Assembly: GCA_963797555.1 (NCBI GenBank) | Contig: CAWCPV010000003.1 | Coordinates: forward strand, 832,001 to 896,000 | Direction: 5' to 3' | Source of the DNA: an uncultured Gammaproteobacteria bacterium | Lineage (GTDB): Bacteria; Pseudomonadota; Gammaproteobacteria; CAWCPV01 | DNA: 64,000 nucleotides | Part shown: positions 56,594-63,663 of the stretch, one piece after another | Layout: each line of letters starts with the position of its first letter | How positions within the stretch are numbered: the stretch's first letter is position 1 | Notes under the pieces: model-generated | Seen by the model: the letters and a program-made list of their open reading frames with translations, nothing else | The model's database searches: none | Told to the model about the DNA's origin: nothing | Made by a program: the position numbers and the translations under genes

Positions 56594-58110
56594 GGCTCTT
56601 TCGGTAATTGTGTGGATCGTGGTGGTCGAGTAGCATCCGTTCTGAGCAATCGTCTATCACAACATCTTGTGGTTGGGCCTGTGGGGTTGTGGGCGAGAGG
56701 CCCGCGAGTGTGGGCAACCGGGAGGTTGTCCACACGGTCCTTGGGACGCGGGCCGCTCCGCAGGACTCGTCCACAAATCCACAGGCCATCAAGGGGGGAG
56801 CGCCATGGAGCCAACGCATCTATTCACGACGGCACTGGGCCTCACGGCGCCTTGGGAAGTCACCGGCGTACGCTTTGACCCCGAGGCTGGGCGCATCGAC
56901 CTCGAGGTGGCCTTTGCCAAGGGGAGCCGCTTCGCCTGCCCGGCGTGCGGAGTGCCAGGCCAGCCGGTGCATGATACCCGCAAGCGCAGCTGGCAGCACC
57001 TGAGCTTCTTTAAGTCACGGGCAGACCTGCACGCGCATCTGCCGCGAGTGCGCTGTGAGAGCTGCGGCAAGACGACTCAGGTCGAGCCGCCGTGGGCGCG
57101 CGCACACAGTGGCTTCACCGCGCTGATGGAGGCACTGGTGGTGACGCTGTGCCAGGCGATGCCGGTGGCGACCGTCGCCCGGCACCTGGGCGTGGGCGAT
57201 GAGCGCCTGTGGGGGGTGCTCGAGCACTACGTGGAGGCGGCCCGCGCCCAGGAGGACCACTCCCCGGTGCGCGCCGTGGGCCTGGACGAGACCGCCGCCC
57301 GGCGTGGGCAGCACTACATCAGCCTGTTCCATGACCTCACGGGCAAACGCCTGCTGTTCGCCTGCGAGGGCCGCGACCAGAGCACCGTGGCGGCCTTTGC
57401 CGCCGACCTCCAGGCGCACGGGGGCGACCCGCAGGCCATCGAGCAGGTGTGCATCGACCTGTCCGCCGCTTATCTCGCCGGGGTGACCAAGCATCTGCCT
57501 AAAGCCACGGTGAGCTTCGATGCCTTCCATGTCATCCAGCTCGCCAACCAGGCCGTCGATACAGTGCGCCGCGAGGAGGTCAAGACCGAGCCCGCCCTCA
57601 GGGGCACCCGCTGGACCTGGCTCAAAGACGCCCACGACTGGACCTGGGAGCAGCTCACCGACTTCCACTGGCTCTCTCCCGCGCCCGGCTCAAGACCGCC
57701 CGTGCCTGGCGCCTCAAGGAGGCGCTGCGCGATATCTACGCCACGGCCAGCACCCTCGAGCAGGCCGAGAGCGCCCTCGGGCGCTGGTATAGCTGGGCAC
57801 GGCGTAGCCGCCTGCAGCCCATGAAACGCCTCGCCACTACCCTGAAAGAGCACTGGGACGGCGTGCTCGCCGCATTCCACTCCGGCCTCACCAACGGCCG
57901 CGCCGAGGGCATCAACTCCCTCATCCAGGCTGCCAAAGCCCGCGCCCGAGGCTACCGCACCACGCGCTCGCTCATCACCATCGCCTACCTCATCGCGGGC
58001 AACCTGGCCCACTTGCCGGCCTTGCCGTTCAACACACGATCTTGTGTCAGACCTCAGGCAGAGGCTGCCGCAGCGTAAGCATATCTACCCACACGATTCC
58101 GGTAAGAACC
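56594..58110 (+). mobile_element. ISL3-family IS, copy 3 (transposase frameshifted near 57676)
   Basis: Same termini as copy 2; 8-bp direct repeat TCATTTCG at 56586-56593 and 58111-58118. Confidence 0.95.
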
Positions 58111-59490: not shown

Positions 59491-60162
59491 ATGTTGCTAC
59501 GCATCCCTTCCGTCCTCTCTGCGCGCCAGATCGAGGCTGTTCGCAGCTTGCTGCACCGGGCCCATTTCGTGGACGGCAGACTGTCGGCGGGATCCGCCGC
59601 TGGCCGGGTCAAGCAGAACCAGGAACTGGACCAGAGCGCCCCCGAGCTGGACACCCTGAACAGCGTCGTCATGGGCAGCCTGGTGCGCCATTCGATCTAT
59701 CTCAGCGGAGCGCTACCGCAGCGTGTCGCCGTGCCCTATTACGCGCGTTATACGGCCGGCATGGCCTATGGGGACCATGTCGACGACCCGGTCATGGGCC
59801 CCGGGCCGCGCTACCGTTCGGATATCGCCATCACGGTGTTTCTGAGCGACCGGGAGGATTACGACGGCGGAGAACTCGTCGTCCGCACGCCCTTCGGGGA
59901 GCAAGAGATCAAGCTCCCCGCCGGCGACGCAGTGATGTACCCGGCATCTAGCCGGCATCGCGTCGCCGAGGTGACGCGCGGGGAGCGTTTGGTCGCACTG
60001 ACCTGGGTGCAAAGCCTGGTTCGGGATCCGGTAAGGCGGGAGCTCCTGTACGAGTTGGGACTGGCCAGAGACCGCCTCATGGAGGTATCGCCGGACGCCG
60101 AGGAGACGGCCCGAGTAAGCCACGCATACGCCAACCTCATCCGCATGTGGGCAGAGGTGTAA
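59491..60162 (+). CDS. PKHD-type Fe(II)-dependent hydroxylase (PiuC/YbiX family)
   Basis: FVDGRLSAG, KQNQEL, YGDHVDD, RSDIAITVFL, YDGGEL, HRVAEVTRGER, NLIRMWAE. Confidence 0.88.
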   Translation: MLLRIPSVLSARQIEAVRSLLHRAHFVDGRLSAGSAAGRVKQNQELDQSAPELDTLNSVVMGSLVRHSIYLSGALPQRVAVPYYARYTAGMAYGDHVDDPVMGPGPRYRSDIAITVFLSDREDYDGGELVVRTPFGEQEIKLPAGDAVMYPASSRHRVAEVTRGERLVALTWVQSLVRDPVRRELLYELGLARDRLMEVSPDAEETARVSHAYANLIRMWAEV

Positions 60163-60373: not shown

Positions 60374-60577
60374 TCAGCGTTTCGAACCGACCTGCTGGTG
60401 GGCAAGATCGACCACTCTCATGGCAAGATCCTGGTATTCCTTGCGGAAGTTCTCCAGCGGGTGTCCGGAATCCGGGGTGTAGTAATCCTTCGGATCCACC
60501 CCGTGGGCATGCTCGTATGCCATGAACTGCTTTTGCAGCTCCAGCATTCGACGAATCAGCTCCTGCTTCTCACTCAT
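60374..60577 (-). CDS. small hypothetical protein
   Basis: MSEKQELIRRMLELQKQFMAYEH..GVDPKDYY..GHPL; GGAGG RBS. Confidence 0.75.
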   Translation of the reverse strand: MSEKQELIRRMLELQKQFMAYEHAHGVDPKDYYTPDSGHPLENFRKEYQDLAMRVVDLAHQQVGSKR

Positions 60578-60657
60578 TGCACTGGCCTCCAAGACTGCCA
60601 TTATTTAAACAGTCTAACATACGGCGCTTGACTGTCTGCGCTTACTGCGCTTCGCCA

Positions 60658-60999
60658 TCAGTAACCGCCTTTGCGTCGGCTCTCCGGCAGACCGGCGATG
60701 CGCCCGGCCTGTTTGCTGGGGTCCAAGGGGAAAAGCTGGTAGAGCGAATTCGCGCTGACCTTCTGGTCACCCCATCTTTCCTGCATGCCCTTCACCATGC
60801 TTCGGGTGTTCGGCTGGCTCCCGGCATTGTTGAAATACTCGTCCCTCAAGTAATTGAGGACATCCCAATGGCGTTGGGTCAGCTCAATGCCCTCGCTGGC
60901 AGCGATCGCCTCAGCGACCCGCTCGTTCCAATCCTCTTGGTTGACCAAGAAACCGGGCGCAGTCATTTCAATGGTTCGCCCGTCGACTTCTAGTGCCAT
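60658..60999 (-). CDS. TusE/DsrC-fold protein with no cysteines (RspA-type)
   Basis: GFLVNQEDWNE, LTQRHWDVLNYLR, LYQLFPLDPSKQAGRIAGLPESRRKGGY. Confidence 0.85.
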   Translation of the reverse strand: MALEVDGRTIEMTAPGFLVNQEDWNERVAEAIAASEGIELTQRHWDVLNYLRDEYFNNAGSQPNTRSMVKGMQERWGDQKVSANSLYQLFPLDPSKQAGRIAGLPESRRKGGY

Positions 61000-61086
61000 A
61001 TATGTCGCTCCTTTAGCTCCTCTTCGAGGTCCACACATGCACCGACTCTTTGACCAGAGCCCACAACGTGACCAAAAACGTCCACT

Positions 61087-61777
61087 TCAGTCTCCGCTGA
61101 CCTGCTGGGCTGGTCCGACACCCTTGTGGGGAAGAAACAGGCCGCACCCAAGTTTGACGTCCAGGACCGAGGCCTCGCTGCTGCAGCCTGACGGATGCGT
61201 GGACTTCCAAATCGGCGACCATCAGACTACGGGTCAGGATGTCACTCCCGGGCGTCCTAATGACATGCGCTCGTCCACACACCAGCTTTCGAACGGGGAA
61301 GCCCTCCCCCTCTAGGAGGCCAGCCGCATGGGCGAGGAACTGCTGTTCGTCGGACTCCGGCGGCGCCGCCACATACCGTGCGAATAAGGTGGGTAGCGTG
61401 CTCAGGGGCCGCACCGAGGATTTCCCCACCTCCAGGGGGCAATCACCGACATCGAGCGTTGCGCCCACGAGCCTACGCGCCTGGCCCAGCCGTTCCTTGG
61501 GTAGGCGCAGTACCATCTTGGTGCGGCGAGAAAGGTGGAGCCGCTGGCCCGACGATTCGTCCGGCCGGTACCAGCCGTTACCAGATTCGGCCACATGGAT
61601 CTGGTGGATTCCCGCGTTGGGCTCGGTCCGCAACCAGGGGAGCACCGCCCATACCGCCTCGGCGAGCGCGTACGCGTGGTCCACCGGAAGAAGCCGGCCC
61701 GTGATCGCAAACGATAGGTCGACCACGTCGACTGGGACGACGTAGGGTTCCTGCGCCTCGTCTTGTTCCCAATAAAT
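61087..61777 (-). CDS. cas6: Cas6/Cmx6-like (type I-MYXAN) RAMP endoribonuclease, stand-alone; ATT at the expected start and +1 frameshift near 61157
   Basis: VVDLSFAITGRLLPVDHAYAL, GIHQIHVAESGNGW, LSRRTKMVLRLP, LFARYV, and G-rich loop LQQRGLGPGR-KLGCGLFLPHK after correcting one indel. Confidence 0.8.
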
Positions 61778-61778
61778 G

Positions 61779-62477
61779 TCAGTTCACCGGAAGCTTGACC
61801 CGGAGGGATTCCCGGTCGAACCACCATTCGTCCTGCACCAGCACGTCGACGACGTTGCGCAGTCGCGGCAGAAAGCGCTCGGGATCGTCCAACTGGAGTC
61901 GCTTGACCCACGCGTCGAACCCTTCCTGGGACAGGACTCGACTATGACGCTGGGCGACTCCCCCCAGCAGTTGATTGGCGAAGAAACGTAGGGTCGGTGC
62001 CTGCTCATCCGACGCGCGCAGATCCACCACATAAACGGCAGCAGCTGCGGCCACTGCAGCACCGTCAGAGTCGTCGGGCGTCTCGTCGACCACGTGCTCC
62101 AGCATGGCGAGGGTCAGCCCAGGATCCACAGGGTAGGTGACCGCCAACCAGATACCCTGACCAAGCGCACTCAGCGAGCCCGGTTGCTCGGCTCGAAACA
62201 GGATGTCGCAGGCCTCGACCGCTTGGTTCCACGCCTCGGCGGCGTGGCATGTCTCGAAAGCCTGACGAGCTACCTGCCAGGCATCTTCGCTCCGCTGCAA
62301 GGCCAGCAGGGTGCGCGCCATCTCGAGTCTCACGGCGACACCCTCCAACGGATGAGCGTCGGACAGCTCGCGCAGCCTCTCCCGTTGAGCGTCGAGGTGT
62401 GATTGCAGCGCATCCGCCGATGCGCTTTCCCCTAGCGCATGCGGCGGCGCGGCCTCGCCCAGTCCAAGATAGTTCAT
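61779..62477 (-). CDS. TPR-like helical hypothetical protein
   Basis: AWQVARQAF, AVEACDILF, ALGQGIWLAVTYPVDP, VVDETPDDSDGAAVAAA, WWFDR. Confidence 0.75.
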   Translation of the reverse strand: MNYLGLGEAAPPHALGESASADALQSHLDAQRERLRELSDAHPLEGVAVRLEMARTLLALQRSEDAWQVARQAFETCHAAEAWNQAVEACDILFRAEQPGSLSALGQGIWLAVTYPVDPGLTLAMLEHVVDETPDDSDGAAVAAAAAVYVVDLRASDEQAPTLRFFANQLLGGVAQRHSRVLSQEGFDAWVKRLQLDDPERFLPRLRNVVDVLVQDEWWFDRESLRVKLPVN

Positions 62478-62511
62478 CGATCGCTCCGGAGTCCAGAGCC
62501 ATGCCGGCCCC

Positions 62512-62703
62512 TTACTTGATAGCCGCGCTGAACGCTGCCTCCAACCGGTCTTCCCAATCCTCCGGGGTGTCGGGGAATGGGGGCTTGACATCCATGCGGA
62601 AGAATACCTCGCCGCCTCGGGCGGCCTCCTGGACTACTTTCACCAAGTCATCGAACGACTGCAGCGTATGCTGGGAGATCAGTATCTCGCTTAGCCAGAG
62701 CAT
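62512..62703 (-). CDS. small acidic protein (often annotated as a sulfur relay protein)
   Basis: MLWLSEILI...FFRMDVKPPFPDTPEDWEDRLEAAF; GGGGAG RBS. Confidence 0.7.
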   Translation of the reverse strand: MLWLSEILISQHTLQSFDDLVKVVQEAARGGEVFFRMDVKPPFPDTPEDWEDRLEAAFSAAIK

Positions 62704-62718
62704 CACGCTCCCCGGGGA

Positions 62719-63663
62719 CTAAGCAGCGACCGCGCAGCCAGTTGCATCGATGCGGTCGTAGTATCTGGCCCGGTAGACTAGGCGCTGTCGGCCGATTCCG
62801 GCGTCGTCAACGAACGCAGTCCGGCTATGCAGCACGTTGTTGCAGACGATACCCTGCCCCGGCTCAAGGCGATGCCGCAACAAGTACGGGGACTCCGCCA
62901 AGAGGCACTGGAGGAACTCCACCGCCGCTCCAGTAGTCCGGTCGGGCTTCCAGTGGATGTTACGCTTGCGGGCCGTGTAACGCATATGGAGGCTGCCCGT
63001 GCCCGCATCCACCGAGAACACCGGACCGGACTGGGCAGCGCGGATCTCGCAACCGTCCTCCATGTTCGGCGGGATGGTCATGGCGTCTGTCTGCATCAGC
63101 GCCGACACAAGACGCGGATCGTGGTCACGCATCAGCAGATAGGCCATCTCGTGGTCGAACAACGCATTCTCGCCGCCACTCGCGGCGTCCTGGGCGCACA
63201 GCAGGATAAAGGCACGGATCCGCTGCGGCGGCGGATTATAATAGCCGTCCGTATGCCAGCTAAGCGGACGATTAGTGTAGGGTATATATCCTTGGTGCCT
63301 GCCCTCGGACTTCACCTGCACAGAGGTCACGCTATCTTCATCAGCGCACAAATTGAAGTCTAAGCGCCGCAACCCAAGCTGCTCACCGACGCTGCGCACC
63401 GCCGACTTGTCCACCGGTTGCGGGCGCCGGCAGGCGAAGATAGCCGTATTTGTTTTGTGACAAGCTCGCAAGATCGCCTCCCGCTCCCCGCGGGTCAGGG
63501 AAAACAGATCCCGAACCTCGACTAACAGGTCATCGGCCGAACGCGGGTAGCCCGAAACTTTCCGGTCGCGCCATCTTTCGTATGCCGACTGAGCACTGAG
63601 ATCGAAAGGCCCAAGCCCATCCCAGCTTAGCCGAGATGCCAGGCCTGCCACCTGCACCTCCAC
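62719..63663 (-). CDS. TauD/TfdA-family 2OG-Fe(II) dioxygenase
   Basis: YIPYTNRPLSWHTDGYY, GGENAL, HMRYTAR, NNVLHSRTAF, YRARYYDR. Confidence 0.88.
   Translation of the reverse strand: MEVQVAGLASRLSWDGLGPFDLSAQSAYERWRDRKVSGYPRSADDLLVEVRDLFSLTRGEREAILRACHKTNTAIFACRRPQPVDKSAVRSVGEQLGLRRLDFNLCADEDSVTSVQVKSEGRHQGYIPYTNRPLSWHTDGYYNPPPQRIRAFILLCAQDAASGGENALFDHEMAYLLMRDHDPRLVSALMQTDAMTIPPNMEDGCEIRAAQSGPVFSVDAGTGSLHMRYTARKRNIHWKPDRTTGAAVEFLQCLLAESPYLLRHRLEPGQGIVCNNVLHSRTAFVDDAGIGRQRLVYRARYYDRIDATGCAVAA

Follow-up and report, generated by a model that had tools for sequence, protein, structure and literature searches.

The 64,000-nucleotide stretch analysed here (the window; contig C3:832001-896000 of the source genome, G000) carries on its minus strand a run of six genes, best explained as a representative of an accessory operon that is widely conserved and belongs to the oxidative (reverse) dissimilatory sulfite reductase (Dsr) pathway. 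One of the six encodes a paralogue of the Cas6/Cmx6 family, referred to below as the dsr type, whose distribution over genomes shows that it tracks dsrA and is independent of CRISPR systems. The reading that is favoured, by a modest degree of belief, is that this Cas6-like protein serves the Dsr pathway as an RNA-binding accessory or regulatory factor. Oxidative Dsr is among the main routes by which free-living and symbiotic bacteria oxidise sulfur, yet little is understood of how it is regulated and of the factors that assist it. An earlier description made from the letters of this DNA (the sequence-only reading) had placed six co-oriented genes at 60374-63663, and six open reading frames (ORFs) on the minus strand indeed occupy exactly this interval (Table 1).

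The Cas6-like gene tracks dsrA and is independent of CRISPR

A search for related loci with the Cas6-like protein alone returned only two loci. As neither the family nor the order of G000 has a second genome, the distribution was taken from a sample of 400 genomes of the class. With G000 included, the protein had a match in 124 of 401 genomes, nearly always as a single copy and at 33-63% identity; two weak matches were set aside, and 121 of the 400 genomes were counted as carriers of a close orthologue. By the criterion of a best TIGR02064 match with E below 1e-30, dsrA is present in 125 genomes. Both genes occur together in 118 genomes, the Cas6-like gene without dsrA in three, dsrA without the Cas6-like gene in seven and neither in 272, counts that are descriptive rather than statistics and that overstate independence because the sampled genomes are kin. 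At all three loci with the Cas6-like gene alone the contig breaks off right at the TauD gene. The carriers include two genomes of only 1.1 Mb (G186 and G346). Cas1 (PF01867, E ≤ 1e-5) was found in 58 of the 121 carriers and not in the other 63, several closed genomes among them, so that the gene is independent of Cas1; together with the presence of dsrA in 118 of the 121 carriers, this bears out the suggestion of the sequence-only reading that the genes form a sulfur-linked module outside CRISPR. Three unpublished genomes in the sample (G307, G039 and G140) are not carriers and touch only the “neither” and Cas1 counts. A phylum-wide sample gave only five of 386 hits, all assigned to the same class, and when 1.84 billion cluster representatives were searched with a profile, 310 of them matched at E ≤ 1e-30. 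The idea that dsrA-positive genomes without the Cas6-like gene are anaerobic phototrophs was discarded, as PF00124 was unmatched in five of five such genomes and in G000.

Within the window, a k-mer scan found no CRISPR array and a profile search no Cas1, in agreement with the sequence-only reading; that picture does not extend to the rest of the genome, which elsewhere holds at least six CRISPR arrays and several cas loci. C9 carries a type I-E system with Cas6e, C4 a type I-G locus, C7 I-C-like repeats and C17 a truncated type III-A locus, with PF10040 Cas6 genes on C2 and C20, and each CRISPR system of the genome has a candidate processing enzyme of its own. The Cas6-like protein keeps the hallmarks of Cas6, and three of the arrays (on C2, C17 and C20) belong to one repeat family ending in ATTGAGAC, which would leave some room for moonlighting of the protein as a CRISPR RNA (crRNA) processor for an array elsewhere in the genome. 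Such a role is, however, barely credible, given that the gene tracks dsrA and not cas genes, that 63 carriers have no Cas1, and that G000 has Cas6e, two PF10040 Cas6 proteins and the type I-G locus, while Cmx8 has no match anywhere in it. The type III-A locus is interrupted by an ISL3 transposase (G000:C17:9201-10070), and the match of its Cas10/Csm1 is confined to the C-terminal portion of the model; the array on C20 adjoins an ORF resembling a Cas2-Cas1 fusion and a group II intron-type reverse transcriptase.

Family membership, fold and conserved residues

The Cas6-like protein of the window matches PF09559 (E 2.8e-51, 174.7 bits against a cut-off of 26.7) and TIGR02807 (cas6_cmx6; 107.8 bits against a cut-off of 98.85). 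Because the window copy is frameshifted, the structure was predicted for the closest orthologue (L014, 63% identical to the window protein; 44-row alignment). The AlphaFold 2 (AF2) model has a predicted local distance difference test (pLDDT) score of 93.3, and its best match in a Foldseek search of the PDB is Cas6 from the Cascade that a CRISPR-associated transposon (CAST) of type I-B encodes (8fcu_B, template modelling (TM) score 0.79), followed by other Cas6/Cse3 chains. The search gave 38 matches at E ≤ 0.001, and those listed are Cas6/Cse3-family chains or Cascade complexes containing them; a sequence profile run against the PDB had 8fcj_B as its sole strong match (E 6.6e-23). Family profiles and structure prediction, the two checks put forward in the sequence-only reading, thus agree, both profiles scoring above cut-off and the predicted structure confirming the Cas6 double ferredoxin-like (repeat-associated mysterious protein, RAMP) fold for the dsr type.

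Weak matches within the class pointed to a complete type I-MYXAN locus (L063), and for comparison 120 relatives of its genuine Cmx6 were collected. In a quick maximum-likelihood tree of 44 dsr-type and 40 CRISPR-type sequences, sets which stem from different queries, a single branch separates the two types (support of 100 in the Shimodaira-Hasegawa-like approximate likelihood ratio test, SH-aLRT), so that the dsr type forms a clade of its own; a Cas6 tree had been among the checks proposed in the sequence-only reading. Residues conserved to at least 90% in both clades are H17, R73, Q181 and the series G184-G186-R189-G192-C193-G194-F196, and D3 is also common to both. H17, which belongs to a DH motif near the start of helix 1, is invariant in the 44 dsr-type sequences and conserved to at least 90% in the 120 CRISPR-type sequences, and is a candidate catalytic residue. 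The C-terminal G-rich loop is likewise conserved in both clades. To these the dsr type adds an insertion of about nine amino acids (aa), SGNGWxRP, with invariant N50, G51 and W52, a PHKGI tail and an N-terminal extension of 17 aa. Further His and Cys positions (H41, H44, C193 and H199) are conserved in it as well. The ratio of nonsynonymous to synonymous substitution rates (dN/dS) lies between 0.05 and 0.24 in six close pairs, which at the level of codons shows purifying selection on the dsr-type gene.

Start codon and frameshift of the copy in the window

Orthologues as called have 17 extra N-terminal residues (M-YWQE...), and the window encodes IYWEQDE... at the same place; because the two align, the start is placed at an ATT codon (61777-61775). 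With this start, the spacing of one base that had been read from the sequence alone is reproduced, the preceding gene having its stop at 61781-61779 and the ATT lying one base on. As assembled, the frame contains one extra A in the run 61153-61155, and the ORF continues to 61013. All 43 aligned orthologues end in ...GLGxGRKxGCGLF(I/L)PHKGI..., where the assembled frame of the window instead has ...GRQTWVRPVSS...; the neighbouring frame reads KLGCGLFLPHKGV... up to a stop at 61087-61089, and the conserved GCGLFLPHKGV, and with it the G-rich loop, is read only there, that is, after dropping one A. In two metagenome runs, with depths of 12 and 4.4, contigs that come from close relatives and are about 96-97% identical omit one letter at 61154; they cannot tell whether the extra A of the window is an assembly error. 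Since the frame after the shift matches the motif perfectly and close relatives are without the extra base, the frameshift is best read as an error of the assembly or else as a lesion of very recent date, and not as old decay.

This bears on the possibility that a type I-MYXAN system has been lost and that the gene is its orphaned cas6, now decaying and without a function of its own, for which the ATT start, the one-base frameshift in this assembly, the ISL3 transposase nearby (Table 1) and the displacement of the operon away from dsrA could be cited. For the family as a whole this explanation is already contradicted, and it is very improbable overall: the gene is kept intact, nearly always in single copy, in 121 of 400 genomes under the selective constraint given above, its clade is separate from Cmx6, the frame after the shift still gives the conserved motif without a mismatch, and close relatives are without the extra base.

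Possible role and the search for an RNA target

According to the favoured reading, the Cas6-like protein would still bind, and perhaps cut, structured RNA, and together with the adjacent DsrC paralogue would act as a post-transcriptional accessory factor or regulator of the Dsr system, which the dioxygenase of the operon may render oxygen-dependent. A bolder version, in which a captured Cas6 endoribonuclease recognises a hairpin in dsr or related transcripts and is gated by oxygen through hydroxylation of the RKGGY arm of the DsrC paralogue by the dioxygenase DsrQ, is improbable at present; if true, the captured Cas6 would be an RNA-level switch for oxygen and sulfur made from a CRISPR part.

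Several observations weigh against the favoured reading. The gaps between the Cas6-like and DsrC-like genes vary from 43 to 173 nucleotides (nt) and share no common hairpin, the dsrA leader is not conserved, and an Rfam scan of three loci (L010, L055 and L061) at E ≤ 0.1 gave no match. The sequence-only reading had the Cas6-like protein binding or processing RNA of sulfur genes, and this part of it found no support, neither beside the gene nor in the dsrA leader nor in Rfam. The orthologues are not basic (median isoelectric point (pI) 6.9, range 5.5-9.4), the gene was not found in the seven genomes with dsrA alone, six of which are split into 180-580 contigs and one into 110, and the copy in the window begins at ATT and has lost the G-rich loop from its assembled frame through the frameshift. 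To these is added the kinship of the sampled genomes already mentioned.

One conserved element was found near dsrA, a palindrome TATCCC-N4-GGGATA situated 140-380 nt upstream of the gene in 51 of 55 regions (G000:C3:911482; loci L043-L108), with CACCCC..AGGGT and a -10-like TAGACTT coming after it. It was considered as a target of the Cas6-like protein and rejected, as its mismatches are symmetric on both strands and it lies just upstream of the -10-like element; moreover, four of four genomes that lack the Cas6-like gene have it and the two 1.1-Mb carriers do not, which likewise tells against a link with the protein. The palindrome looks like a conserved DNA operator of the dsrA promoter.

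The want of an RNA target and the lack of basic character are also the grounds on which a different use of the fold stays a serious rival, if a distinctly less probable one: the Cas6 fold may have been repurposed for a role that does not involve RNA, serving as scaffold, as chaperone or as a partner that binds a ligand or metal, acting for example on the DsrC paralogue, in the maturation of DsrAB or in presenting a substrate to DsrQ. Apart from the near-neutral pI, the invariant N50, G51 and W52 of the clade-specific insertion, the conserved H41, H44, C193 and H199 and the PHKGI tail that CRISPR-type Cmx6 lacks would fit such a role, as would a neighbourhood with up to three Fe(II)/2-oxoglutarate (Fe/2OG) oxygenases and small proteins, which suggests protein chemistry. 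By contrast, the residues held in common with Cmx6, the DH-motif His and all of the G-rich loop, are those expected for work on RNA, and nothing that speaks for a protein partner was found. A complex prediction for the Cas6-like and DsrC-like proteins scored 0.00, which gives no verdict and is not evidence either way.

Organisation and conservation of the operon

Gene order was compared among the 29 best matches of the class, in loci of ±1.5 kb. The TauD gene is at its canonical position in 25 of these loci, 27 have p64 just upstream of the Cas6-like gene and 27 have the DsrC-like gene in its place, and the conservation of gene order on which the sequence-only reading had made its proposal depend is thereby found. 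The helical-repeat gene p270 occurs in 14 loci and p75, downstream of the DsrC-like gene, in 15; the two (loci L014-L042) are seldom found together, both being present only in L029, L042 and the window. Of 20 loci of 20 kb, at least 14 have the operon and dsrAB-EFH-C-MK in divergent orientation, and three of three further, more distant genomes have a variant order, with dsrA divergent from the Cas6-like gene, followed by the DsrC-like gene, a gene for a 203-aa protein (c21) and TauD. Because it is seen in both gene orders, the adjacency of the Cas6-like and DsrC-like genes survives rearrangement.

The operon of G000 (C3:892374-895663) is not divergent from dsrA (C3:909959-911170, located by the TIGR02064 search) and lies about 14 kb downstream of it. 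Extension of the contig gives the upstream gene order, on the same strand, as dsrL, J, O, P, N, a gene for a dsrR-like IscA protein, one for a flavin adenine dinucleotide (FAD) disulfide oxidoreductase, and then the operon, which has been relocated to the dsr cluster's 3' end, after dsrN, dsrR and the FAD oxidoreductase. Past the operon follow a PKHD-type hydroxylase on the opposite strand, the conserved 203-aa gene, an Alvin_2107-family gene and the ISL3 transposase. For the 377-aa ORF downstream of this cluster no Pfam or NCBIfam match was obtained; a resemblance to DsrS, suggested by its N-terminus, is not claimed.

Table 1. Genes of the operon and neighbouring features of the window (positions in the window).
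Feature	Position	Strand	Basis and remarks
dsrQ, TauD/TfdA-family Fe(II)/2-oxoglutarate dioxygenase, 314 aa	62719..63663	-	PF02668, E 1e-21, 78.6 bits
p64, acidic protein, 64 aa	62512..62706	-	pI 4.4; no Pfam/NCBIfam match
p270, helical-repeat protein, optional	61779..62477	-	232 aa from ATG 62477; longest ORF up to 62591
Cas6/Cmx6-family paralogue, dsr type	61087..61777	-	ATT start; frameshifted; PF09559, TIGR02807
DsrC/TusE paralogue, Cys-less (RspA type), 113 aa	60658..60999	-	ATG 60999; PF04358; ends RKGGY
p75, small protein, 75 aa (67 aa from second ATG)	60374..60601	-	no family above threshold
PKHD-type (YbiX-like) Fe(II)/2OG hydroxylase	59491..60162	+	NF003975, 238.7 bits; outside operon
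Alvin_2107-family protein, 65 aa	58322..58519	+	NF049856, 91.3 bits (cut-off 60); outside operon
ISL3 transposase	56667-57824	+	near operon
ORF, 377 aa	55200-56333	-	

Recurrent neighbours of the operon in other genomes are a second and a third Fe/2OG oxygenase (YbiX-like PKHD and 2OG-FeII_Oxy_3; L055:15361-17001), DUF6866 and GNAT proteins, so that up to three oxygen-dependent enzymes can stand beside the dsr genes. The cluster of YbiX-like hydroxylases (c27) recurs beside the operon in other genomes, and the Alvin_2107-family cluster (c40) in L043, L045, L047 and L061. Two genomes have the Cas6-like gene apart from the operon (L012:5119-6645; L062:8884-10323), beside a gene for a SpoU-family RNA methyltransferase in one and for RNase III in the other, an anecdotal point for the favoured reading.

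Partner proteins

The sequence-only reading had recognised the dioxygenase and the DsrC-fold protein correctly (Table 1); the part of sensory partners that it gave to these two is conjectural. It had described a 63-aa acidic protein, which is acidic and has 64 aa; a 67-aa protein, a length that applies from the second ATG of p75; and a protein like tetratricopeptide repeats (TPR), for p270. The AF2 model of p270 (pLDDT 90.7) is an all-helical repeat of 11 helices, whose weak matches are best to TPR-type repeats and whose look-alikes in the structure atlas score 0.83-0.84, so that p270 is a helical-repeat protein and at most loosely TPR-like, with no Pfam match and no Foldseek match in the PDB at E ≤ 0.001. 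The conserved residues of p64 are D39, P42, D46-T47-P48, W51 and E52.

DsrQ keeps H137-x-D139...H279 and R294, at least 95% conserved in 23 sequences, and because the H-x-D...H triad and the 2-oxoglutarate-binding Arg are in place the enzyme looks active. Its best NCBIfam matches are to trimethyl-ammonium-type hydroxylases, far below cut-off, and TauD itself is not among them. These matches do not favour the idea that the operon is chiefly a sulfonate-degrading unit, in which DsrQ frees sulfite from organosulfonates and the remaining genes are unrelated passengers. A sulfonate role has been speculated upon in the available excerpts of two papers (PMC7596348; PMC9371685), and the intact catalytic triad would suit it; still, four to six genes tightly linked across two orders argue for one shared function, and among the clustered ORFs no sulfonate transporter stands beside the operon, which together make this explanation an improbable one.

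The Cys-less type of DsrC is known as RspA. The DsrC-like protein of the operon matches PF04358 (E 1.8e-34, 118.8 bits) and TIGR03342 (103.6 bits), and its C-terminus reads ...GLPE(S/T)RRKGGY in 37 of the 39 best matches, with R109, K110, G111, G112 and Y113 invariant. The last 15 residues are free of Cys in 36 of the 39; L037 has one Cys there, and L057 and L059, with two, are true DsrC. The window protein ends in GLPESRRKGGY and has no two-Cys arm such as that of DsrC proper (CysB-X10-CysA). Because its C-terminal arm is free of Cys, the paralogue cannot carry sulfur on Cys; the arm ending in RKGGY is as conserved as the arm of true DsrC, and the protein probably still docks somewhere.

Significance

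As a Cas6-family protein whose gene tracks dsrA nearly one to one, even in genomes of 1.1 Mb, the dsr type would offer a clear example of how a part of CRISPR was taken into core energy metabolism, and the gene set concerned is small and well defined. There is also a practical side. Since the score of the window protein exceeds the NCBIfam cut-off, annotation that applies TIGR02807 would label the dsr-type gene as CRISPR, and censuses that count labels could then log CRISPR genes in sulfur oxidisers that have none.

Comparison with known systems

The tauD-like gene divergent from dsrA has been named dsrQ (Lenk et al. 2012, as cited in PMC7596348). It is the same gene as the first of the operon; in the available excerpts of PMC7596348 and PMC9371685 a sulfonate role of dsrQ is discussed and the Cas6-like gene goes unmentioned. 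According to the excerpts of the latter paper, TauD/DsrQ stands beside DsrAB in Methylovirgula, with a Cys-less DsrC-like gene three locus tags off, a spacing that suggests the same operon; the equivalently placed gene MHY1_00075 is described there as a “probable regulatory sulfur-related protein” (PMC9371685). A literature search on Cas6 or Cmx6 together with dsr or sulfur oxidation, with supplements outside its range, found no paper that sets Cas6 among dsr genes, and the matches that were read deal with ordinary CRISPR loci. The sequence-only reading had known of no functional description of the operon, which is too sweeping for dsrQ and the RspA type, both already named; only the Cas6-like member of the dsrQ operon seems to be undescribed in the literature searched.

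With other RspA-type proteins the DsrC paralogue shares the DsrC fold family (PF04358) and the loss of both redox Cys residues. Its subgroup differs from them in its own invariant GLPE(S/T)RRKGGY arm and in its fixed place after the Cas6-like gene. The Alvin_2107 family (NF049856) is represented by a separate small gene 1.9 kb from the operon, whose link to sulfur-globule oxidation comes from the family name only.

The closest CRISPR counterpart is Cmx6 of type I-MYXAN, a genuine locus of which (L063) has Cmx6 with 187.7 bits to TIGR02807, followed by Cas3, Cmx8, Cas7, Cas5, Cas4/1 and Cas2. Both types belong to the same Pfam family and share the fold, the residues D3, H17, R73 and Q181 and the loop G-x-G-x-x-R-x-x-G-C-G-x-F. 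However, the window protein is only about 25% identical to Cmx6 and scores 107.8 bits with the same model, the dsr type alone has the SGNGWxRP insertion, the PHKGI tail and the N-terminal extension, and it adjoins dsr genes and not Cmx8, Cas7, Cas5 or Cas3. The best solved relative is the Cas6 of the type I-B CAST (chain B of 8fcj and 8fcu; TM 0.78-0.79), which has the G-rich loop in common with the dsr type, but in 8fcj_B is without the SGNGW insertion, has N in place of the dsr-type H17 and sits in a crRNA-bound Cascade.

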